A stretch of DNA of 64,000 nucleotides, from positions 1 to 64,000 of the forward strand of contig CAVQSP010000010.1 of the NCBI GenBank assembly GCA_963715985.1, in the 5' to 3' direction. This DNA is from an uncultured Thermoleophilia bacterium. Its GTDB lineage: Bacteria; Actinomycetota; Thermoleophilia; UBA2241. Made by a program: the position numbers and the translations under genes. Under the pieces are notes generated by a model. It made no database searches and was not told where the DNA came from. It saw only the letters and a program-made list of their open reading frames with translations. This document shows, piece after piece, positions 539 through 49,784 of the stretch. Numbering within the stretch: position 1 is the stretch's first letter; each line of letters opens with the position of its first letter.

Positions 539-1945
539 ACGACGCACCGACCCTGGTCGCCGCGCAGCGACCGCACCCGGCCGCGGAAGCGCTCGACGCA
601 GTTGATCGGCAGGTCGAGCAGCTCGGCGATGTTGAACTTGGCCTCCATCGCCGTCGGCTCGCCGACGCACTCGTTCTCGAGCTCGGTGAGGCGGCCGATG
701 CCGAACTCGCTGCGCACGTCCTGCATGACGACGCCGTCGGAGAGGTCGCGCACCGAGACGCCGAGCTTGTCGGCGACGTACGCCTTCGCTTCCTTGAGTC
801 GCATGCCACGGGTCATCTGCATCCGCATCACCAGGTCTCCGGCGGTGCGCATCCCGTTCATCCCCGAGGCAAGCATGTGCGCCATGTGCGCGCCCAAGGC
901 ATCGCCGGAGCCCATCTACAAGCCGTCGACGCGCAGGATCTCGATGAAGGCGCGCGAGACTCTCGAGCACGGCGTCGACCGGCGGGAAGGGGTGCATCGG
1001 CACGCCGCAGACTCCCATGCCGACGTTGGGATGCACGGGGATCTGGGCCACGTCCATGCAGGGCTTGATGATGGCGATCGCCCGCGCGACGTTCCAGGCC
1101 ACGCTGCGGCCGGTGTTCATGTTCACGGCCGGACCGAAGATCGTCGCGCCGGCCAGCTGCGCCAGGCGCATCTGCTCGACCGGCCACACGCCGGCCAGCC
1201 GGACGCCCTCCCACTCGAGCTCGCCGTGCATGCCGAGCACGAACTCCGAAGCCATGCCCAGCTCGATGCTCAGGTCGGGGCAGGCGTCGCGCAGTCGGCG
1301 CACCGCCTTGAGCACGGCGAGGAAGTCGGCGTCGCCGGCGGCGCCGGTGGTGTCGAAGTTCATGCCGTCGGCGCCGGCCTCCCACATCGCCTCGCCGATG
1401 CGGACCATGTCCTCCTCGGACTCGGCCGCCGCCTCCTCCTGGGCGGCGCGGGCCTCGTCGATGCGGCCCTCGGGGAGGAGCTGCGACCAGTTGGGGCACG
1501 GCCCGTCGGGCTTCGAGTAGCGACCGAGATCGGCCTGGGCGCCGTACTGCACGGGGATCGTGAGGCGGTACTGCGCCTCCTGCATGAGGCGCTGCTCGCT
1601 GGGGACGACCGTCTTGACGGCCTTGTAGGAGTAGTCCTGCTGCTGCAGTTCGCAGAGGTCGTTGCCCACGTCTTCGGCATCGGTCAGGCTGTCGAGCCTC
1701 GAGGCGCGCAGGACGTTGGATCCGTCGCAGGACAGGACGACCTCGTCGCCGGCCCTGACCCCGGTCATGCGCTCCTGCGAGGCGAAGATGTCGAGCAGGT
1801 GGGCGGCCTCGTCGTCGTCGAGCGGCGGCACTTTGGCGCGCTTCACCGCCGCGGCGACGCCGTCCTCGATGTCGGCGCGCAGCTCGTCGCGCGTCATCTC
1901 CACCGCGGTGCCGTCGCCCATCCTCGTCATCAGCCTGGTACCCAT
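534..1945 (-). CDS. mtbB: Dimethylamine:corrinoid methyltransferase MtbB with in-frame TAG (pyrrolysine) at 916-918; +1 indel near 968; 3' end approximate
   Basis: ATG at 1945 after a GAGGAG RBS. Motifs TRMGDG, DYSYK, PDGP, NFDTTGAAGDADF, GMASEFVLGMHG, FGPAVN, and ...ILRVDGL-TAG-MGSGDALG..HMLASGMNGMRTAGDLVMRMQ, matching the MtbB Pyl site (GVDGI-O-IGVGD). Confidence 0.9.
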
Positions 1946-6397: not shown

Positions 6398-7810
6398 TCA
6401 CGTCCCCGGCCGCTGCGCCTCCACCTCGGCGAGGATGTTGTCCAGGCCGAACTTCGCCGCGTCGCTCAGCTCGAAGGCGCGCGGCTCGGCGCGCAGCGCC
6501 GCGACCCGCGCCCTGAGACGGTCGAGCAAGGTCCGTGACCCAGCGGCCTGCCAGGCGTCGTGACGCGTCGTCTCGAGCAGGTCACTCTGCCAAATCTGGC
6601 GGAAGTGCTTGCGCGTGTAGGGCCGGGCCAGGTGGCTGCCGCCCGGCCCGACGGCCTTGATCTCCTCCAGCGCCAGGGCCTCGTCGTCCACGCGCAGCTC
6701 GCTCATGAACGCCTTGGAGAAGCCGATGAGCTCGTCGCCGAGCAGGATGGACTCGTAGCTCGCCTGCAGGCCGGCCTCCAGGTAGCCGACGTCGTGGAGC
6801 AGGGTCGCCCGTGAGAGCATCCCCGTGATGGTCGTCAAGGCGCTCTCCACGCCCCACTGCTCGTCCAGCGTCTTGCTGTCGGTGTGGCCGGCGTAGCTGA
6901 AGCTCGGGAGGTCGTACCAGCGCGCCAGGTCGGTCTGCGCCTGGTAGCCCTGCAGGCAGCCGGCCGACGAGTAGACCTCGTTCATCGTGCGCATGTTCAT
7001 GGCGCCCACCCCGACTCCCCACACGAATGGAGCTCCCGGCTTCACGGCCTGGTGCAGCACGAGTCCGGCGAGCGTCTCGGCATTGGAGACGACGATGACG
7101 GAGGAGATGCTGGCCGGCGCCGTGGTGCCGGCGTTCGGCGCCGGCGCCCAGATGAGCGGCACGTCGAGCTCGGCGCAGGCGATCACCTTGCTGGCGCCGT
7201 CCTCGTCGAACATGAGGGGCGGCACCGGCATGGCGTAGATGCCGAAGCTGTCCGTCTCGCCGGCGAAGGCCGCCATCTCCTTCATGCGCCCGAGGATGTG
7301 GCCGTCGCGCGGAGCGACCAGCAACGGCTTGCGCGTGCCGCGCATCATGGCGTCCACCTGCACGAGGTCGTCGATGGCCTGAGGCGCGTCCTCCGGCAGG
7401 CCCATGCTCATCACGAAGTCGATGTTGGGCAGCTTCTCGCAGAGCGCGGCCATGCCCTCCACGTCGGCCCTGCGCACGCGGCGGCGCTCGCGCGTGTCGG
7501 GGTCGCAGACGTAGAGCACGTCGCTGCCGGTGCCGCAGTAGCTGTGATGGGCGTCGAGCACCATGGGCTCCGTGTCGCCGCCGCGCGGCTTGATCGTCCA
7601 GTCGCGCGGGGCGCTCTTGACGGCCGCCTCGACCAGCTCGGCGGGGATGCGCACGCGGGTCCCCTCGACCCTGGCGCCGGCGCCGGCGAAGACCTCCACC
7701 GCCGGCGCGTACTTGACCTCGATGCCCGTCTCCGCAAGCACCTCCAGGGTCGCTTCGTGCACGCGCGCGCATACCGCGTCGTCCCAGATCGTCAGGCGAG
7801 CTTCGTTCAT
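6398..7810 (-). CDS. MttB-family methyltransferase, non-pyrrolysine (His at the Pyl position)
   Basis: VHEATLEVLAETG, GTTAPAS, YDLPSFSYAG-H-TDSK, HDVGYLE, IKAVGPGG. Confidence 0.88.
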   Translation of the reverse strand: MNEARLTIWDDAVCARVHEATLEVLAETGIEVKYAPAVEVFAGAGARVEGTRVRIPAELVEAAVKSAPRDWTIKPRGGDTEPMVLDAHHSYCGTGSDVLYVCDPDTRERRRVRRADVEGMAALCEKLPNIDFVMSMGLPEDAPQAIDDLVQVDAMMRGTRKPLLVAPRDGHILGRMKEMAAFAGETDSFGIYAMPVPPLMFDEDGASKVIACAELDVPLIWAPAPNAGTTAPASISSVIVVSNAETLAGLVLHQAVKPGAPFVWGVGVGAMNMRTMNEVYSSAGCLQGYQAQTDLARWYDLPSFSYAGHTDSKTLDEQWGVESALTTITGMLSRATLLHDVGYLEAGLQASYESILLGDELIGFSKAFMSELRVDDEALALEEIKAVGPGGSHLARPYTRKHFRQIWQSDLLETTRHDAWQAAGSRTLLDRLRARVAALRAEPRAFELSDAAKFGLDNILAEVEAQRPGT

Positions 7811-14689: not shown

Positions 14690-14893
14690 CCGGGCGGGCG
14701 GCCGCGAGGCACATGGCCGGCGCGGGTGCAGCCCGACGTGGAGAGTCCGGCCGCCCATAACTTGTGCGAATCTCGCCACCCTCGCGAGCCGCCCGCTACG
14801 GATTGCTCGGCGAAGTTGAGCGCCGGCGGCGGCGGAGCTTTACTCGCGCGCCGGGCGGCCATACCCTCGAGACTCCGCGACGAAGGTAGGGCG

Positions 14894-16363
14894 ATGAAGA
14901 GGAACCTGCAGGCCGGACGGCCCAGCTCGGGCGGGTTGAGCCTCAGCGTGTTCACCGAGGCCGAGCTCGCCGATATCCATCTCGGCTCCCTGGAGGTCCT
15001 GGAGCGCGCCGGCATGTGGGTGGAGGACGACGGCGCCCTGGACATCTTCAGCGACGGCGGCTGCCTGGTCGACCGGGAGGCGCACACGGTGCGCATCCCG
15101 CCACACCTCGTCGAGGACGGCCTGCGCTCGTGCCCGCCCAAGACCTACCTGTACGGCCGCGACCCCGCCAACGACATCGTCCTCGAGGCCGGTCGCGTGT
15201 ACGTCTCCAACTTCGACGAGGGCATCATGATCGTCGACGTGCGCACCGGCGAGTACCGCCACCCCGTGCTCACAGACGTGCACGAGGCGGCGCGCCTCGT
15301 CGACGCCCTCAGCGACATCGACACCTACGAATCGGCCGTGCATCCGGTGGACGTGCCCGAGGAGACCGCCAGCCTCTACAAGTGGGAGGCGGCCATCGCC
15401 AACACGAGCAAGCCGGTCGGTACCGAGGCCGTGAGCGCCGCCGACGTGAAGAAGCTCGTCGAGATGGCGACCGTGGTCGCGGGCGGCGAGGACGAGTTCC
15501 GTCGCCGCCCCCTCATCGGCTTCGGCTGCTGCCCGGTGAGCCCGCTGCAGCTGCCTCGCGATGCCACCGACGTGATCATCGAGTCGGCGCGCGCCTGGTG
15601 TCCGGACACGATCCTGAGCATGGCCATGTCCGGCGGGTCGTCGCCGGTCACCCTCGCGGGCACGCTCGTGCTGCACAACGCCGAGGTGCTCGGAGGCATC
15701 GTGTTGGCACAGCTCACCGAGCGCGGCTGCCCGATCACCTACGGCTCGTCGACCACGGCCATGGACCTCAGGCTGGCCACCGCCTCCGTCGGATCTCCGG
15801 AGCTCGCCCTGTTCAGCGCCGCCTGCGCGCAGATGGCGCGGCGATACGGTCTGCCGACCTTCGTCGCCGGGTTGTAGACGGACGCCAAGCTGGGTGACGC
15901 GCAGACAGGTCACGAGAAGACCCTCACCGGACTCCTTCCTGCGTTGGCAGGTGCCAACCAGATCTACGGGGCGGGGATGATCGAATCGGGCGTCACCTTT
16001 GACTTCGGCCAGCTGGTCATGGACAACGAGATCGCGCGCATGATCAAGCGCGTGGTCGGCGGCATCACGGTCACGGACCAATCCATGGCCGTGGACGAGA
16101 TCATCGGGGTCGGCGCGATGGGCGACTTCCTCTCGCTGGACTCGACCCTGCGCCACATGCGCGAGCTCACCCAGCCGGTCATCCTCGACCGCCGCGTGCG
16201 CGAGGACTGGGAGGCGCAGGGGAGCCGCGACCTGGCCACGGTGGCGCACGCCCGGGCGCTGGAGCTCGTGGAGTCGCACCAGCCGACGCCGCTGGACGCC
16301 GACGTCGCCAGGCAGCTGCGCAGCATCGTGGAGGCGGCCGACCGCGAGCGCGGCGTGGCCTGA
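14894..16363 (+). CDS. mttB: Trimethylamine:corrinoid methyltransferase MttB with in-frame TAG (pyrrolysine) at 15875-15877
   Basis: Two listed ORFs are in one frame, joined by TAG: [49 protein letters not shown], matching the MttB Pyl site (VAGS-O-SDAK..QAGHEKT); 489 aa with readthrough. Confidence 0.93.
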
Positions 16364-16549
16364 CGGTCGGCGCGGCGTGCCCGGAGGTCGGCCCGGCGTG
16401 GCCGGACGGTCGGCCCGGCCCTTCCCGCACGACGCTGCGACCCGTCACGGCAGCCGGGTCGCCGGCCCCTCTGAGAAGGGCGCCAAGTGGACTCCCGTGA
16501 CGCAAGCCTCGCGAGAACGTGCGGCCGAGGCGGGATTCATGACTGCCCG

Positions 16550-16587
16550 TTCAACAGGAGGCACAAGCAACGGTGTCTTCTGTTGAA
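16550..16587. terminator. AT-rich hairpin between convergent mttB genes
   Basis: TTCAACAGGAGGCAC-N8-GTGTCTTCTGTTGAA, 15-bp stem with two G-U pairs. Confidence 0.5.
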
Positions 16588-16622
16588 ATCGCGGTGAGGA
16601 CCATGCCTGCCGTGCCGCCTGG

Positions 16623-18093
16623 CTAGCCCCGCCCGGTGTCGCCGGCCTTGACCAGCCGGCGGAGCTCCGCGCGCACGTCCTCGGGGAGCGGGTCGGGCGC
16701 GTGCGTGCGCAGAATCTCACGCGCCTGCTCCTCCGCATTCTGCAGCGCCCCGTGGCGCCCGCCGGTCAGCCACGCGTCGTACGGCGTCCGGTCCCAGACT
16801 CCCGGCCGCCAGATCTCGCCCAGGTGCCGGCGCGTGTGCTTCTCGGCCAGGTACGTCCCGCCGTGCCCGACCGCGCGGATGGCGTCCAGCGCGAGCGTCT
16901 CGTCATTCACCTCGATGCCCCCGGCCATGTGCGCGACGATGCGGTACACCTCGACCTCCCTCAGCAGGTGCGCATAGCTCAGCGTCGTCGAGCCGTCCAG
17001 CAGCCCGCAACCGCTCATCATCTCGGCGCCCGCAGCCACGCTGGCCAGGGTGGAGAGAGCATCGTCCACGGCAGCCTGCCAGCCGGGCTCTTTGGCGCCG
17101 CTGGCCATGGTGCCCATGTTCACGGCGAAGCCGAACGTGGTGCGCCATCTGCGTGGCGGCGGCGGCAAGGACGTAGTCCTCCGGGCTGCCGCCGGTGTAG
17201 CCGCCGGTCTTGAGGTCCATCACGGAGGGCGCGCCGGCCATGAAGCAGGGCGCGCCGGGGTGGGCCAGCTGGACCAGCACAAGACCGGCGACAACGGCCG
17301 CGAGGTTCACGACCAGGTTGCCGGCCAGGCTGGCCGGCGCCGAGGCGCAGGCGAGCGTCAACGAGAGAAAGCCCACACGCACGCCGGCCTCCGCCGCGAC
17401 CAGCGCCGCCTCCAGGCTGACGGCGTCGTTGGCGAGCGGGTCGATGGGGCAGGCGATGAGGCTCATGAGCGGCCGGCGGCGGAGCTCCTCGGCCCCGCCG
17501 GCCACCGTCCGCGCCATCTCCACGGCGCGCCGCGTCGTCTCCGCGCCGACCACGTCCACGGCCTGGAAGTGCTTGCTCGTGTTGGCGAAGACGGCCACGA
17601 GCTCGTAAAGCGGCCGCATTTCCCGCGGCACGTCCTCGGCGGTGACGATCGGGCCCCAGCAGAAGCCGACCTCGGGGACGGCGTCCACAAAGCGCGCCGC
17701 GTCGGCCACGTCGGCCCCGGTGCTGCGGCGACGCTCGCCCGTGGCCGGGTCCAGCACTCACACGCCGCAGCCGTCGTTGCTCAGATAGCTGTGCCAACCG
17801 TCCAGCACGAGATCGCAGCGGGGGTCACGGGCGGCGAGCAGCGGCGCCTGCGGCGCCGCCTCCAGCGCCGCCCGCACCACCGCCTCGGGCAGGCGCGCGA
17901 CCTGCGACGTGCGGTCCACACGGCAGCCGCCGCGTTCCAGCACGTCGAGCGCGCGCGCCAGCGGGAAGCGCACGCCCACCTCCGCCAGCGTGAGCACAAC
18001 GCCATCCTCGAGCCGCGCCACGTCGGCGTCGTCCAGCACGCGCCAGCGGCGCCGGCACGGGATCGGCGCGATCCGCCCACTTGTCTCAGCCAC
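16623..18093 (-). CDS. MttB-family methyltransferase, non-Pyl, interrupted by in-frame TGA (17758-17760) and a frameshift near 17136
   Basis: Three ORF pieces (17758-18120, 16903-17757, 16623-17168) are collinear with the paralogue at 23750-25147 (MDLKTG..TGG.PED; SGAKEPGWQ). Confidence 0.8.
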
Positions 18094-18248
18094 AGGCACG
18101 CCGCCCTCCCCTCCGCACACCGTGAACGCTCCCCGGTCGCAACGTTACACCGCTATACTCAACGTGTCCTTCGGGACGAACGAGACGCCGGGGGGGACGT
18201 CCGGTCGCTCGGCCGGCACGTCCGTGGCGTCGCAGCGAAGGGGGAGAC

Positions 18249-23749: not shown

Positions 23750-25147
23750 TCAGGCGATGCCGACCAGCCGCCGCAGTTCGGCGTCCAACGCCGCGTCCAG
23801 CGCCGGCGGCCGGTGCTCGGCGACGATGCGCGCCACGCGCTCGTGGGCGCGGTCGACGGCGGTCTCGCGGCCGCCACCCGCCCAGTAGCGGTGCGGCTGG
23901 TCGACGGTGAGGGGCGCGACGCCGGGCGGCGAGGCCGGGGCGGCCGCGGACGGGCGATCCCGGGAGCCACCATCCAGGCCGGAGAGGTCGATGCCGGCGG
24001 CGATCTCACGGGCCTGCGTCATCGTGTCGGCGGCGAGCGCCATCTCCTCGTAGCTGAAGATGCGCCCGCCCGATACCATGCCGACGCCGGTCAGCATGTC
24101 CACGCCGGCGGCCAGGGAGAGGAAGGTGGTGGTCGTGTCGTCGAGCGCCGACTGCCAGCCGGGCTCTTTGGCACCCGAGGAGTTGATGCCGCACTGCGTG
24201 GGCAGGCCGTAGAACTGGCCCACGTCGCCGACGGCGGCGCCCATGATGGTGTCCTCCGGGGCGCCCCCCGTGAAGTCCCCGGTCTTGAGGTCCATCACGC
24301 TCGGGATGAAGCAGATGAACACGGGGGCGCCCGGGAAGGCGGCCTGCACGACGCACACGGCGCTCAGCGCCTCGGCGATACCCACCACCAGCGAGCCGGC
24401 CATGGTGATCGGCGTGGTGGAGCCGCCCATGGGCATGGTCACGAACCCTATCGGGACGCCGGCCTCGGCAAAGACCAGGCCGGCCTCGAGCGTGCCGGCG
24501 TCGTTGCCCAGCGGTGTGACCGTGCCCAGCAGCGCGCTGACCGGCGGAGCGGCGCGCAGCGCCTCGGCGGAGCCCGCCACCGCGCGCGCCATCTGCACCG
24601 CGATCTCCGCGAGCTCAGGTTCCACCACGGTCACGGTCTGTACGTGCTTGCCCGTGTTGGCGAGAGCCAGATACAGCTCGTGCAGGCCGCGGACCTCGGC
24701 CGGCCGGTCCTGGGCGCTCACGGCCGGCCAGCAGAAGTCGAGCTCGGGCATGGCGTCCACGACACGCGAGATCGTCGCCACGTCGGCGGCAGTCGTGCCG
24801 CGCTTCTCGCCACTCTCGATGTCGTAGATCTCCACGCAACAGCCGTCCGTGGTGAGCAGCGAGCGCTCGCCGGTGACGAGCGGTGTCCCGGCCCTTGCGC
24901 CGAGCGTCAGGCGGGATGGGGCGAGCGCCACGAGGCGGCGGACCAGGTCGGGAGAGAAGCGGACGCGCGCATCGTCCACGTCGGCGCCTTGCTCGGCCAG
25001 CGCCTGCCTGGCGCGTGCCGAGGGGATTGAGACGCCCACCTCGGCGAGCACGGCGAGCGCAGCCGCGTCGAGCTGCTCCAGCTCGCTCCGGGAGAGGATC
25101 TCGAGCCTGCCGGCGGAGCCGACGCTGTGCGTGTGGGAGGCGTGCAT
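23750..25147 (-). CDS. MttB-family methyltransferase, non-Pyl (Ser at the Pyl position)
   Basis: NTGKHVQ, GGSTTPITMAGSLV, MDLKTG, YGLPTQCGIN-S-SGAKEPGWQ. Confidence 0.88.
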   Translation of the reverse strand: MHASHTHSVGSAGRLEILSRSELEQLDAAALAVLAEVGVSIPSARARQALAEQGADVDDARVRFSPDLVRRLVALAPSRLTLGARAGTPLVTGERSLLTTDGCCVEIYDIESGEKRGTTAADVATISRVVDAMPELDFCWPAVSAQDRPAEVRGLHELYLALANTGKHVQTVTVVEPELAEIAVQMARAVAGSAEALRAAPPVSALLGTVTPLGNDAGTLEAGLVFAEAGVPIGFVTMPMGGSTTPITMAGSLVVGIAEALSAVCVVQAAFPGAPVFICFIPSVMDLKTGDFTGGAPEDTIMGAAVGDVGQFYGLPTQCGINSSGAKEPGWQSALDDTTTTFLSLAAGVDMLTGVGMVSGGRIFSYEEMALAADTMTQAREIAAGIDLSGLDGGSRDRPSAAAPASPPGVAPLTVDQPHRYWAGGGRETAVDRAHERVARIVAEHRPPALDAALDAELRRLVGIA

Positions 25148-25257
25148 GTGTGTGACTCCGATCGTCCCAGGGACGCGCCGGCGCCGGCGCGTCCGCCCGG
25201 AAGCCGCGCCAGTCTAGCACGTTTGTGGGGCCCTCCGGCCCCGGGTACCATGGCTGT

Positions 25258-36920: not shown

Positions 36921-41792
<4,872 letters not shown>

Positions 41793-45312: not shown

Positions 45313-48009
45313 TCAGACGAGCTCGTGCAGGCGCTTGATGAGCGGCTCGAACTCGGGGCCGGTGAAGCAGTACTGGAGCTCGGTGAAGCGGCGCCGGAGC
45401 GCGATGACCGCCTCGCTCACGCGGGCCCCGTGGTTGACGACCGCCGCCATGAGTCCCGCGATCTCGCCGAAGTCCGCCGGCTCCATGCCGAACCGCGTCA
45501 TCTCGGCCACGCCGAGGCGCAGGGCGCCCGAGGCGGTGAAGCCCTCCTCGTCGGGCGCCGCCTGGTAGTTGCAGATGATGTTGTTGCCCTCGAGCAGGCC
45601 GGCGACCTCGGGGCCGCGCCCGTAGCCGACGCGCACGATCACCTGGTGCGTCTCGGTGAAGTCCACGGCCGGGTCGCCGGCCACGTCCAGCCCGGCCTCC
45701 TTGAGCGCCACGGCGAAGGCCTTGGCGTTGCGCAGGACGGCCTGCTGGTAGGCGTCCTTGAAGTGGTTCATCTCGAAGGTCGCCATGAGCAGGCCGAGCA
45801 GCGTGCCCAGGTGGTGGTTGCTCACCGATCCCGGGAAGGCACGGCGCTCGATGGCCTCCCAGAGGTCGTACTTCTCCTGCGGCTCCTCCCAGCGCCCGCC
45901 GATGAGGCCGCGCTGCGTGCCGAAGAAGGTCTTGTGCGTCGACCCGGTGACGAGGTCGGCGCCCTCACGGAACGGCTCCTGGAAGTGCGGCCCCACGAGG
46001 CCGAGCACGTGCGCCATGTCGTACATGAGCACGGCGTTGATGCCGGCGTCGTCGAGGAAGGTCCTGACTTCGTACACCGGCTCCGGGTGCAGCACCATGC
46101 TCTTGCCGAGGATGATGAGCTCGGGGCGCTCCTGCTCGATGAGGTCGAGGAGCGCCGGCACGTCCGGCTTGTACGGGTTGTCGGCGAGCACCGGGATGTC
46201 CACCACGGCCGGCAGTTCGGTGCGTGGGTCGCGGGCCACGTAGTCGCGCAGCGCGCCCATGGGCTGCGCGCTCAGGTGGCCGCCGCGGGCGATGTGGTTG
46301 TTGATCACCTTGGCGATGCGCCGCGGTTCGGCCTTGCGGTCGGCGCGGTTGAGGTAGTCCACCATCGCGCTGAACACGGCGGTGTTGGCCATCTGACCGC
46401 TGATGACGCGTGTCTCCACCTCCGGGCAGCCCAGGTAGGCGCGGAGCTCGTTGGCGAGCAGCCGCTCCACCTCGTGGATGAACCCGGTGCCCTGGTAGTA
46501 GAAGACCTCCTGGTCGTAGAAGGCCTCCGTCTTCTTGTGCTCGGCGTAGCGGAAGGACGGGTCGAGGGTGCTGAGCAGCCGGACCATCGGCGACGCCGTC
46601 ATCTCCGAAGGGATGAGGTCGATGCACTCGTCCTGGCGCCACACGTGGTTGGCCACGGCCAGGTTCAGGAGGCGAAGCGCCTTCTCGCCGGCCTCGCCTC
46701 CCTCGAGCTCGGAGAGCTGTGGCGTGTAGTCCCACACGATGGCCCGTGCGCACGGAGGAGCGTCGCTGCGCAGGTGGTAGGGCACCACGAGTCCGGGGAC
46801 GCGGCGGCCGCGCACGTCGAGCTCCACTTCGTCGTCCTCGACCACGCGGCTGTCCAGGTAGGCGAGGGCTATCGAGCGCAGGTCGTGCTCGTCCGTACGC
46901 GACGAGCAGAGCCCCTCGCCCTCCACGCCCCAGTAGGGCACGGCCGTGCCGCTGGTGACCCAGCCGAGGAGCTCGCCGTCCGGACGCAGGACCTGCGAGC
47001 CTTCGCGGGCGATGCCGCGCCCGGTCACGGCCACGGGCCGCGTGAGGCGTGGCAGGTCGTGGATCAGCGAGTAGTCGCGGGCGAGGATGCGCGCGTACGC
47101 GGCGTGCTGCAGCTCGAGCGCCGCACGCCCGACGAACTCACCCTTCAGCGGCGAGAAGCTGACCGCGAACGTGGCCAGCGGGCAGCTCATGATGGGGATC
47201 TCGTGGCCGTCGGGGTCGAGGCCGAGCTCGTGCCCGTACAGCGGCAGGCCGGCCTCGAGGCGCAGCGTGTCGCGGGCGCCGAGCCCCACGGGAGCGGCTC
47301 CTGCCTCCACCAGCGCGTCCCAGAGTGCCGGCCCGTGCTCGGGCGCCATGAACAGCTCGAAGCACAGCGGCTCGCCGGTGTAGCCGGTGCGCGCGATGCG
47401 TACCGGCACGGGGCGAGCCGTGCCGCCCGGACTCGGCACCTGCATGGTGGCGATGCTGAGCTCGTTGCGGAACGGATCCGGGAGCGTACCGGTCGCGATG
47501 AGGCCGGCGAGGATGTCCCGGGACGCCAGGCCCTGCAAGGCCAGCATGGCGATCTCGCCGGTCTCGTCGGTGAGCTCGACGTCCGGGAAGCCCTCCAGCT
47601 GCTCCTGGAAGTGCTCCCAGTCCTTGACCCGGTTGGCGGCGTTGACGACCAGCAGGTACTCGTCCTCCACGAAGCGGTAGAGGTAGGCGTCGTCCACCGC
47701 GCCGCCGGTCGGTGTGGGCACGATGGTGTACTGCGCCTGCAGGGGGTCGAGCGCCTCGGCGTTGTTGCTGAGCACGTGCTGCAGGAAGCGTGCGGCGCCG
47801 GGGCCGCGCAGCACGAAGCGGCCCATGTGCGACACGTCGAAGAGGCCCGCGCGGCTGCGGGTGGCGAGGTGCTCGGCGAGGATGCCGCCGGGGTACTGCA
47901 CCGGCATCTCCCAGCCGCCGAAGTCGACGAGTCTGGCCCCGAGCGCCACATGACGCCCGTGGAAGGGCGTGCGCAGCAGACCGGCGGCCTCGGGCGATGA
48001 GCCGCTCAC
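45313..48009 (-). CDS. Fused glycine-cleavage T protein (GcvT) + serine hydroxymethyltransferase
   Basis: N-terminal LRTPFH..FGGWEMP, LFDVSHMG, RTGYTGE, GARDTLRLEAG; C-terminal LIPSE, YDMAH, STHKTFFG, GALRLG; one continuous frame. Confidence 0.9.
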   Translation of the reverse strand: MSGSSPEAAGLLRTPFHGRHVALGARLVDFGGWEMPVQYPGGILAEHLATRSRAGLFDVSHMGRFVLRGPGAARFLQHVLSNNAEALDPLQAQYTIVPTPTGGAVDDAYLYRFVEDEYLLVVNAANRVKDWEHFQEQLEGFPDVELTDETGEIAMLALQGLASRDILAGLIATGTLPDPFRNELSIATMQVPSPGGTARPVPVRIARTGYTGEPLCFELFMAPEHGPALWDALVEAGAAPVGLGARDTLRLEAGLPLYGHELGLDPDGHEIPIMSCPLATFAVSFSPLKGEFVGRAALELQHAAYARILARDYSLIHDLPRLTRPVAVTGRGIAREGSQVLRPDGELLGWVTSGTAVPYWGVEGEGLCSSRTDEHDLRSIALAYLDSRVVEDDEVELDVRGRRVPGLVVPYHLRSDAPPCARAIVWDYTPQLSELEGGEAGEKALRLLNLAVANHVWRQDECIDLIPSEMTASPMVRLLSTLDPSFRYAEHKKTEAFYDQEVFYYQGTGFIHEVERLLANELRAYLGCPEVETRVISGQMANTAVFSAMVDYLNRADRKAEPRRIAKVINNHIARGGHLSAQPMGALRDYVARDPRTELPAVVDIPVLADNPYKPDVPALLDLIEQERPELIILGKSMVLHPEPVYEVRTFLDDAGINAVLMYDMAHVLGLVGPHFQEPFREGADLVTGSTHKTFFGTQRGLIGGRWEEPQEKYDLWEAIERRAFPGSVSNHHLGTLLGLLMATFEMNHFKDAYQQAVLRNAKAFAVALKEAGLDVAGDPAVDFTETHQVIVRVGYGRGPEVAGLLEGNNIICNYQAAPDEEGFTASGALRLGVAEMTRFGMEPADFGEIAGLMAAVVNHGARVSEAVIALRRRFTELQYCFTGPEFEPLIKRLHELV

Positions 48010-49218
48010 GCCTCGGCCCAGCTCTTCAGCAGCCCGAGGCCCTCGCGGATCCGCTCGGTACTGATACCCGAGTAGGCGAAGCGCACGTAGCGCTGCTCCT
48101 CGCCGGGGAGCGCGCGGCCGAAGTGCAGGCGGGTGCAGAAGCTGACGCCCGTCTGCTCCAGCGCCGCACGCCGCAGCTCGTCGTAGGTCGAGAATCCCTT
48201 GCGCTCCATGAGCCCGGTCACGTTGGGATACAGGTAGAACGTGGCCCCCGGGCGGAAGCAGGCGATGCCGGGGATCTCGTTGAGGATGTCGACGGCGGCG
48301 TCGCGGCGCTCCCGGAGGATGCGCGACGATCTCGCGTGGCCCCGCCTGGTCGCCCGTGAGGCCCTCCAGGGCGCCGTACTGGACGAAGTGGTTGGAGCAG
48401 CTCTCGTCGTTGACGTTGAGCTTGGCGATCACGTCGGCGATCCACTGCGGCCCGATCGCGGCGCCCAGGCGCCAGCCGGTCATCGCGAACTTCTTGCTGA
48501 ACGTGTAGAGGATCAGACAGCGTTCCGCCATGCCGGGCAGGCTCGCCAGCGACCGGCTGGCGCCCGAGTAGCGGATGTCCCAGTACGCCTCGTCGCAGAG
48601 CACCAGCAGGTCGTTCCTCAGCGCGAACTCGGCGACGCGCTCCATCTCCGCCGGCGAGCTCTCCGCGCCGGTGGGGTTCTGCAGGTTGTTGAAGATGAGG
48701 ATCCGCGTGCGCGGCGTGACCTGTCGCTCCAGGGCGTCGAAGTCGAGCTCATAGTCCGCGTCGCCCTCCACGTAGCCGTAGGGCAGGGCGACGCCGCCGT
48801 TGAACTCGATCTGGCTCTCGTAGATGGGGTAGCCCGGATTGGGGTAGAGCACCTCGTCGCCGGGGTCCATGACGGAGAGGAGGAACTTGCCGATCACCGG
48901 CTTGCCGCCGGGCTCGACCACCACGTTCTGCGGGCCCAGCTCGAGCCCGCGAGAGGCGGCCACATCGGCGGCCAGGGCCTCGCGCAGCGGCATGATGCCG
49001 GCGTTCGGGCAGTAGCCGGTCTTGCCGTCGCGGATGGCCTTCTCCGCGGCGTCCACGATGTTCCGCGGTGTGGGCAGGTCCATGTCGCCGAGGTGGAAGG
49101 GGTAGACGGTGTGGCCGAGCGCCTGCCACTCGTTGGCCTCGGCCGAGACGGAGAACGCCGTCTCGGTGCCGAGACGGTCGATGCGAGCTGCCACGCGGTG
49201 GTCGAGTCCTGCGCCCAT
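48006..49218 (-). CDS. Class I/II PLP aminotransferase (frameshift near 48320)
   Basis: PNPGYPIY, NNLQNPTG, DEAY, TFSKKFAMTGWRLG; C-terminus in ORF 48006-48221. Confidence 0.88.
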
Positions 49219-49242
49219 AGCACTCACTCCTTGAGCCAGAGA

Positions 49243-49415
49243 GGACAGGGTGATGGTCCCATCACCCTGTCCGCCTGCGGGCTCGTGAGCCGCGTGCTCC
49301 AGGGGCCCGTCCGCTTGCGCTCCGTTGGCCTGAGAGATTCGGCGGCGCATCCGGCGCCATCCTTGCCCCTTCGGCGCCCGCCATCTCTTGCGAGCGGCGG
49401 GCTCTCGCGCCAGCA
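49243..49415 (-). ncRNA. Glycine riboswitch (single aptamer) with downstream hairpin
   Basis: Minus strand GAGAG...CGCCGAAGGGGCAA...AATCTCTCAGGCCAACGGA; 14-bp hairpin at 49243-49272 before the RBS; upstream of the gcvT-glyA fusion operon. Confidence 0.85.
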
Positions 49416-49784
49416 TCCGCCGGGCGTCCTCGGTTGCCCCGAGCGTAGCACTCATGGGCAGCGCCGGGCAACGGGGGCGGGTGCAGGGTCAGCGGGACGT
49501 GGGGACGTCCAGCACCTCGACGTGCACGTGCGCCTTGTGGCGGATGGTGCGCAGCACGTCGATGGCCGCCTTGACGCAGTCCTCCAGGCCGGGCTCGGCG
49601 GCTTCACGGGGCAGGCCGACATCAGGTCGCGGCGCTCTGTGCGAGGATCGTCTCCCAGGCGGGCCTCCGTTCTATCCCCCGCCAGGCCGGGTCCGGCCCG
49701 TCACGTCCGGCTCGTGCGGGTGTAGGCTGCGGGGGCGCACGGGTCTTTGTCCGTCAGCTGTCCAGCTGTGCGCGGGGGTCGGAG

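Follow-up and report, generated by a model that had tools for sequence, protein, structure and literature searches.

A pyrrolysine-type trimethylamine methyltransferase gene (mttB) with an in-frame TAG codon in an uncultured Thermoleophilia bacterium

The DNA analyzed here, which we call the window, is a stretch of 64,000 nucleotides (nt) from a metagenome-assembled genome (MAG) of an uncultured bacterium of the class Thermoleophilia, phylum Actinomycetota (GenBank assembly GCA_963715985.1), and corresponds to positions 1 to 64000 of contig CAVQSP010000010.1 (C10:1-64000; other contigs of this genome are named in the same way). The assembly spans 4.35 Mb in 22 contigs, with 70% GC, 88.8% completeness and 7.3% contamination. 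In the window lies mttB, a gene of the trimethylamine:corrinoid methyltransferase family whose reading frame is cut by a TAG codon at the position where its solved archaeal homolog carries pyrrolysine (Pyl):

14894..16363, forward strand: mttB, predicted Pyl-type trimethylamine:corrinoid methyltransferase; 489 codons, then a TGA stop at 16361-16363
15875..15877, forward strand: putative Pyl codon, the in-frame TAG at residue 328, opposite X334 of structure 7xcl

Under translation table 11 the gene appears as two open reading frames (ORFs), 14726..15877 and 15944..16363 (+), which share one frame. A sequence-only reading of this DNA had joined them into a single readthrough product of 489 amino acids (aa) and had placed the TAG at the conserved Pyl position of MttB, and both statements were borne out: retranslation of 14894-16363 with the TAG read through yields 489 residues with a single TAG (residue 328), and residue 328 aligns exactly with the X (Pyl334) of 'YVAGSXSDAKV' in 7xcl. 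The ATG start at 14894 is preceded by a Shine-Dalgarno-like GAAGGTAGG and agrees in position with the N termini of homologs. The translation scores 306 bits against the Pfam family PF06253 (MTTB; cutoff, 25) and 665.3 bits against the NCBIfam equivalog TIGR02369 trimeth_pyl ('[trimethylamine--corrinoid protein] Co-methyltransferase'; cutoff, 525). Its best matches among solved structures are the MttB chains 7xcm (409 bits) and 7xcl (406 bits; residues 2-485), and the non-Pyl enzyme MtgB (2qne and 9yce; 221 bits) has 'GGGLNDSK' at the Pyl column.

The active site of the solved MttB, as set out in the portion of PMC9842639 drawn on here, consists of Pyl334, Tyr364, Met249, Gly372 and a Gly110-Thr111 cis-peptide; Tyr364 acts as a proton shuttle to Pyl, and the exchange Y364F cuts Vmax about 28-fold. 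Both in the alignment with 7xcl and in a 57-row alignment, the archaeal Tyr364, Met249 and Gly372 correspond to Tyr358 (within 'GANQIYGAG'), Met243 (within 'LSMAMSGG') and Gly366 of the window protein.

To place the gene among its relatives, we retrieved 67 related loci, one genome per species, nearly all of them from uncultured Thermoleophilia or Actinomycetota MAGs (one is from Candidatus Formimonas warabiya and two are from other Firmicutes). Two loci, L094 and L095, end short of the TAG site, and the TAG is kept at the homologous motif in all 65 that cover it. The orthologs in Thermoleophilia MAGs are 81-86% identical to the window gene, and eight related loci carry frameshifts elsewhere in mttB. 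When 19 orthologs of equal length are compared with the window gene, the differences at codon positions 1, 2 and 3 number 596, 551 and 1900 before the TAG and 521, 329 and 809 after it; the 161 codons downstream of the TAG contain no indels and no stops, retain 77-81% amino acid identity and evolve as coding sequence. The segment 15812-15922 is covered by short-read contigs from three independent wetland runs (X1, X2 and X3), with no change listed at 15875-15877, in a cover that is patchy overall (with gaps, for example, at 16336-16583 in three runs and at 17700-17823 in two). In the Pyl-mttB paralog of one relative, codon 285, which is Ser in the others, is a further in-frame TAG (L071:6853-6855, 'YG-TAG-STT'); an error, a nonsense mutation and another Pyl site are all conceivable explanations.

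The window gene belongs to an expanded family, with 89 matches to PF06253 in the genome. Among 43 long MttB-family matches that were examined, ten carry one TAG each, always within AG-x-TAG-x-D-x-K, and these ten TAG-mttB copies stand at roughly 50-65% identity to window mttB. A quick maximum-likelihood tree was built from 37 of the genome's own copies of at least 420 aa and 8 outside Pyl copies, 45 rows in total. In it, all 15 TAG rows, window mttB included, fell into one clade of 16 with an SH-like approximate likelihood ratio test (SH-aLRT) value of 99, and the 29 remaining non-TAG rows lay outside it. The TIGR02369 model agrees with this division: it gave 537-735 bits for six other TAG copies and 284-285 bits for two non-Pyl window paralogs, and among the copies tested only those of the Pyl clade passed the cutoff. 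Three non-Pyl paralogs of the family, all without a TAG, are located in the window at 6431-7798, 16623-18120 and 23768-25159. The sixteenth member of the clade (L105, C3:63073-64479), which adjoins the TAG-bearing copy C3:61572-62990, has a Leu codon (CTC) in the Pyl column, and its counterpart of Tyr364 is Ala. It still scores 652 bits with TIGR02369 and appears to have lost pyrrolysine recently, possibly with a shift in function.

The sequence-only reading had further argued from two unrelated enzyme families, each with a TAG at its own Pyl site. This holds and extends to three, namely mttB, mtbB and mtmB. All 11 mtbB copies of the genome carry the TAG in 'DG[LF]-TAG-xG', and one of them lies in the window:

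580..1930, reverse strand: mtbB, dimethylamine methyltransferase (PF09505, 363.6 and 159.5 bits), with the TAG at 916-918 in 'DGL-TAG-MG'; in this assembly a frameshift near 962-969 splits it into the frames 962-1930 and 580-969

The genome search for mtmB returned two copies with the TAG in 'GMGL-TAG-GPE' and four full-length mtmB-like genes without it. The latter (C11:185068-186420, C11:311481-312830, C3:48518-49861 and C14:103360-104718; PF05369, 225-378 bits), most of which adjoin corrinoid-protein genes, are candidate non-Pyl MtmB homologs.

We also searched the genome for the machinery that makes and inserts pyrrolysine, including its transfer RNA (tRNA), and found the whole cluster on contig C13:

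C13:551949-552972: pylB, in two frames (303.8 and 125.8 bits)
C13: pylC (317.9 bits)
C13: pylD (199 bits)
C13:555126-555198: tRNA-Pyl, anticodon CTA
C13: pylSn (124.6 bits)
C13: pylSc (316.5 bits)

These genes exceed their cutoffs, except for pylB, in which a single extra base near C13:552668 breaks the frame. Because the essential gene gyrA (window 39245-41789, +) is split over two frames in the same way, near 39990-40000, indel errors are present in this assembly and probably account for the split of an otherwise intact pylB; apparent pseudogenes in this assembly should be treated with caution. Between pylSn and pylSc lies a corrinoid-protein gene (C13:558334-558910, +) that is likewise in two frames. 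PylS was found in 60 of 300 other sampled genomes of the class, comprising 51 of 55 from the window's family, 9 of 55 from a second family and none of 190 from ten other families; in the window's own genus it is present in 33 of 36 sampled genomes.

How the genome uses UAG otherwise was gauged from a stop-codon census of 2060 ORFs, crudely called by their GC content by codon position and no shorter than 250 codons: 78% end in TGA, 19% in TAG and 3% in TAA. Since TAG still ends about a fifth of these ORFs, it is not reassigned genome-wide and its decoding is site selective. The cell must tolerate UAG or discriminate between its two uses, as other Pyl bacteria do according to the part of PMC1976440 considered here. 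Because a tRNA-Sec gene (anticodon tca) is present at C13:139538-139635, the organism probably decodes UGA as selenocysteine as well as UAG as pyrrolysine.

The sequence that follows the UAG shows a second layer of conservation, for which the relevant matches and candidate structures are:

15875..15974, forward strand: Rfam RF02510 PYLIS_3 ('Pyrrolysine insertion sequence mttB'), model positions 1-100, 79.7 bits (gathering threshold, 38)
819-918, reverse strand: Rfam PYLIS_2 (mtbB), 52.2 bits, after the mtbB TAG at 916-918
15939..15961, forward strand: candidate hairpin CUG-C-GUUGGC / AGGU / GCCAAC-CAG, -13.0 kcal/mol alone
15893..15997, forward strand: candidate long-range helix, GGUGACGC (15893-15900) and C15902 with G15988 and GCGUCACC (15990-15997)

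The PYLIS_3 match is the only one within the 64-kb window. Because the model also matches eight other TAG paralogs and the TAG-less Leu paralog L105 (56.7 bits), its score partly reflects coding conservation, and its consensus has few pairs, two of which are non-standard in the window sequence. Even so, the nucleotide sequence itself is genuinely constrained. Among 18 orthologs, codon pairs that encode the identical residue differ at a rate of 0.04-0.10 in windows of 30 codons whose start lies between codons 321 and 351, compared with 0.17-0.39 elsewhere and with 0.25 in an equally invariant stretch of the protein (codons 231-260). Restricted to degenerate codons whose amino acid is invariant, the mean is 0.081 for codons 329-378 (n = 45) versus 0.273 (n = 270; Mann-Whitney one-sided p = 4.8e-10). 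Among 50-codon windows, the lowest begin at codons 331-338, and 8 of 40 codons in the constrained stretch end in A or T, versus 0-4 per other 40-codon bin. The same dip occurs in a second mttB paralog group (n = 14), the profile of a third group (L081, n = 5) is ambiguous, and a non-Pyl MttB control drawn from the same MAGs (orthologs of 6431-7798, n = 16) lacks a dip at the homologous place (0.24-0.32). In mtbB (12 orthologs) the drop after the TAG is weak (0.22 versus 0.30, p = 0.025) and other windows are equally low, and we thus rejected the idea that the constraint is a general property of Pyl codons in this lineage.

The two candidate helices were evaluated on 60 distinct 129-nt stretches beginning at the TAG. 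In the hairpin, 96.5% of cells are paired and in four of nine pairs both bases vary, with one pair being U-A in 27 sequences, A-U in 22 and G-U in 9; in the long-range helix, where the U of a U-A pair comes from a rare GGT codon, 90.7% of cells are paired and three of nine pairs show changes on both sides. Jointly they reach a covariation score of 0.135, versus 0.062 for shuffles (0 of 500 reach 0.135) and at most 0.055 with the partners slid, in a comparison where the structure derives from the same sequences, the rows are related and some covarying columns are codon positions 1 or 2. RNAalifold independently predicted the cores of both. In stability, the fold of the 120 nt downstream of the TAG does not exceed that of shuffled sequences (z = +0.26, with 113 of 200 shuffles as stable) and so lends the structure no support, and the hairpin, at 64 nt past the UAG, is too distant to act on its own on a ribosome paused there. 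By eye, the TAG-less paralog of the Pyl clade breaks five of the eight contiguous pairs of the long helix and two of the six pairs of the hairpin core, and the Firmicutes copies do not retain the long helix in the alignment. A first candidate helix near the UAG (columns 23-30 with 36-42 of alignment A2; 83% paired, one double change) was discarded as weak, and its 5' strand was assigned to the long-range helix instead.

Earlier work saw no sign of a common structure in the mttB region (PMC3639795), and none was found for bacterial Pyl genes in the part of PMC1976440 used here. Tentatively, we suggest that 15893-15997 may act as a structured recoding element specific to this lineage, in which a hairpin is enclosed by a long-range helix. 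Selection on synonymous sites, including the rare A/T-ending codons, would maintain it, and it would aid Pyl insertion at this UAG; we consider this possible and, on present odds, doubtful. If true, this would make it the first 'PYLIS' of a bacterial mttB whose structure has comparative support, and it would bear on how bacteria discriminate between Pyl-UAG and stop-UAG. Such a lineage-specific structure, here a candidate, would be a small addition.

We then turned to the genes around mttB. The window adjoins the replication origin genes dnaA, dnaN, recF, gyrB and gyrA. Upstream of mttB are a TetR/BetI-type regulator and an agmatine-deiminase-like gene, and around it are the three non-Pyl MttB-family genes, a flavin adenine dinucleotide (FAD) oxidoreductase, an FrhB-like iron-sulfur protein, SBP_bac_5 binding proteins and an amino-acid-type ATP-binding cassette (ABC) transporter; several of these neighbors recur next to the ortholog in other MAGs. 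In most relatives, mttC, which encodes a 216-aa corrinoid protein with B12-binding_2 and B12-binding domains, begins at the mttB stop codon and is followed by a class-III aminotransferase-like gene and then by a converging, intact MttB-family gene. Roughly 2.5 kb of this arrangement, holding mttC and the aminotransferase-like gene, are missing in the window, where mttB is followed by:

16364..16622: short spacer of 259 nt in place of mttC, starting with about three 22-nt tandem copies

These tandem copies (16340-16410, +; GGCGTGGCCTGACGGTCGGC...) start within the last mttB codons. One X2 contig spans the 3' end of mttB into the spacer and omits 43 nt of the 22-nt repeat, which indicates variation in repeat copy number between populations. 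Erosion of mttC is also visible elsewhere, since five orthologous loci (L030, L048, L049, L050 and L055) keep C-terminal remnants of it alone. Beyond the spacer, the converging non-Pyl MttB-family gene (16623-18120, -), whose orthologs in other MAGs are intact, looks broken: its frame is interrupted by a TGA at 17758-17760 and also by a frameshift. The X2 and X3 short-read contigs lack one base at 17136, which would restore the frame, and the frameshift is probably an assembly error; at the TGA, short-read cover is too thin for judgment. Farther along the window, a glycine riboswitch aptamer (RF00504, 49308-49419, -; 54.8 bits) lies upstream of a 1391-codon frame (45316-49488, -) with aminotransferase, GcvT and SHMT domains, which may represent several genes or a fusion.

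For the later steps of methyl transfer, the genome offers about 20 corrinoid proteins; the search for them gave 29 matches, four of which exceed the Pyl-corrinoid cutoff. It also encodes two RamA-type activators, a pterin-binding methyltransferase (C11:151314) adjoining one of the RamA genes, and URO-D family paralogs.

Taken together, we consider it probable, at roughly 0.85 and judging from the sequence, that mttB is a Pyl-MttB gene that is read through. From its frame, the position of its TAG, its family membership, the coding constraint past the TAG and the presence of the machinery, we infer the following course of events. During translation, codon 328 UAG would be decoded by tRNA-Pyl(CUA), giving the full-length protein of 489 aa, and this tRNA would be charged by the split bacterial PylSn and PylSc with pyrrolysine made by PylB, PylC and PylD. 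If the solved archaeal enzyme is taken as the model, trimethylamine (TMA) would be bound and activated by Pyl328, which Tyr358 and Met243 surround; transfer of one methyl group to the Co(I) corrinoid carried by a partner protein would then yield dimethylamine (DMA). Because the adjacent mttC is missing, this partner would have to act in trans and would be one of the genome's other corrinoid proteins. The methyl group would then most likely be handed to tetrahydrofolate by the pterin-binding methyltransferase, with the RamA-type activators holding the corrinoid in its reduced state. The TMA-to-DMA demethylation chain proposed by the sequence-only reading finds its support at the level of the genome, which supplies the corrinoid proteins, RamA and the pterin-binding methyltransferase, and not in this locus alone, where mtbB is frameshifted in the assembly and mttC is absent; a chain from TMA onward is plausible for the organism.

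Several observations weigh against the view that this is a working Pyl-dependent TMA methyltransferase. Neither tblastn nor blastn found a remnant of mttC in 16364-16622, and the 88.8%-complete genome contains no mttC ortholog of at least 80% identity, its best match (C14:696020-696625, adjoining another TAG-mttB) reaching 67%. With ten TAG-mttB copies in the genome, the substrate of this one may not be TMA. TAG still terminates about 19% of the crudely called ORFs. The assembly contains indel errors (the gyrA and pylB splits) and 7.3% contamination, and the pyl cluster is on a contig other than the window's. Finally, Gly110-Thr111 is replaced by Asp108-Glu109 ('NFDEG') in the window protein and in all 23 orthologs shown; other bacterial groups have G, A or S at the Gly110 column, followed by E. 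In the cited part of PMC9842639, Gly110 is reported to be 100% conserved in Pyl MttBs and to act via its main-chain carbonyl. Because the role of Gly110-Thr111 is exerted through main-chain atoms, the Asp-Glu swap lowers strict identity to archaeal MttB and leaves the mechanistic likeness in place.

Some of these observations could also be accommodated if the gene, as one of many diverged Pyl-MttB paralogs, encoded a Pyl-dependent methyltransferase specialized on a methylated amine other than TMA, which we regard as unlikely. Such a specialization would fit the number and divergence of the TAG-mttB copies, the group-specific Asp-Glu beside the active site, and the neighborhood seen in relatives, which is unusual for a TMA operon in its non-Pyl MttB, FAD oxidoreductase, agmatine-deiminase-like, FrhB-like and solute-binding proteins. 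However, mttB exceeds the equivalog cutoff of TIGR02369 and retains Pyl, Tyr358, Met243 and Gly366. We know of no Pyl-MttB substrate other than TMA, which also counts against a different amine. Moreover, since Gly110 works via its main-chain carbonyl (PMC9842639, in the part cited above), a change of side chain need not alter the chemistry.

Alternatively, mttB might be intact in sequence and functionally orphaned or decaying in this genome. This would account for the loss of the 2.5-kb segment, whose junction one independent contig spans, for the recurrent erosion of mttC in the lineage and for the in-frame TGA in the converging MttB-like gene. We nevertheless judge it quite improbable, given that the mttB frame shows no lesion besides the Pyl TAG, that it is 81-86% identical to its orthologs and constrained in the same way, that the neighbor's frameshift at 17136 is absent from short-read contigs of two runs, and that other corrinoid proteins are available in trans. 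That the TAG is a nonsense mutation or a sequencing error, leaving a pseudogene or a 327-aa protein plus a 139-aa ORF from TTG 15944, would suit a frame cut in two under table 11 in an assembly that does hold errors, but is excluded as far as sequence can decide, as the sequence-only reading had anticipated, by the TAG, which stands precisely on the Pyl column in 65 of 65 loci and all Pyl-clade paralogs but one (10 of 10 TAG-bearing copies), by its presence in short-read contigs, by the downstream coding constraint and by codons 329-350, which a restart at 15944 would skip and which are among the most conserved (amino acid difference, 0.007-0.02).

Returning to the read-through Pyl-MttB, we compared it with the systems described so far. 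With the Methanosarcina-type MttB (7xcl, 7xcm and 7xcn; Commun Biol 2023, PMC9842639) it shares the family, the length, the Pyl position (328 here, 334 there) and the blocks 'LSMAMSGGSS' and 'GHEKT...AGAN.IYGAG', and it differs in its bacterial, high-GC host, its Asp-Glu pair and the lack of an adjacent mttC. The methyl acceptor is probably tetrahydrofolate here, as opposed to coenzyme M for the Methanosarcina-type enzyme. The non-Pyl MttB superfamily (MtgB, 2qne and 9yce) has the triosephosphate isomerase (TIM)-barrel family in common with the window protein, but its members in the window lack the TAG, lie outside the TAG clade and have orthologs without the synonymous dip. At the RNA level, the 100-nt stretch from the UAG resembles Rfam PYLIS_3 and the mtmB PYLIS, whereas the helices supported by covariation differ from the Rfam consensus.

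Among bacteria, Bilophila also has Pyl-MttB genes. Desulfitobacterium hafniense and the Olavius delta-1 symbiont resemble the window's genome in their split PylSn/PylSc, their pylBCD cluster and the frequent use of UAG as a stop, and seven MtbB and three MttB paralogs are given for the Olavius symbiont in the portion of PMC1976440 drawn on for these points. The complement found here, from the phylum Actinomycetota, is larger than in those bacteria, with 10 TAG-mttB, 11 TAG-mtbB and 2 TAG-mtmB genes; window mttB itself is 48-51% identical to Peptococcaceae copies. Closest to our case are Actinobacteriota MAGs from the thawing Stordalen Mire, which express Pyl-encoding mttB and mtbB according to the part of the report considered here (mSystems 2023, PMC10805028). 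They probably represent the same lineage and habitat: a related locus, L074, is labeled a palsa isolate, and the runs with window DNA, of which 24 were found with no RNA run listed among them, are wetland metagenomes. Pyl mttB and mtbB in Actinobacteriota MAGs are thus already published. In the portion of that report considered here, Pyl genes are recognized by amber-codon truncation alone, with nothing on the Pyl column, the pyl cluster, paralog numbers or a downstream RNA element. Our literature search found no paper linking Thermoleophilia with pyrrolysine, and the supplements of PMC10805028 may list the lineage; a search for pyrrolysine in Actinomycetota by that name returned nothing on Pyl methyltransferases.

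The present analysis adds where exactly the Pyl column lies, a complete pyl cluster, a count of the Pyl methyltransferase genes and the distribution of PylS across families, together with the local loss of mttC, the Asp-Glu replacement and the constrained stretch past the UAG. For annotation, the case matters because genes of this type are routinely split at the TAG. The synonymous constraint and the covarying helices past the UAG also provide a testable handle on site-selective UAG decoding in bacteria. More broadly, an uncultured, high-GC wetland lineage emerges with a complete pyrrolysine system and an unusually large set of Pyl methylamine methyltransferases, and because of this combination, these bacteria likely consume tri-, di- and monomethylamine, competing with methylotrophic methanogens in peat and lake sediment.

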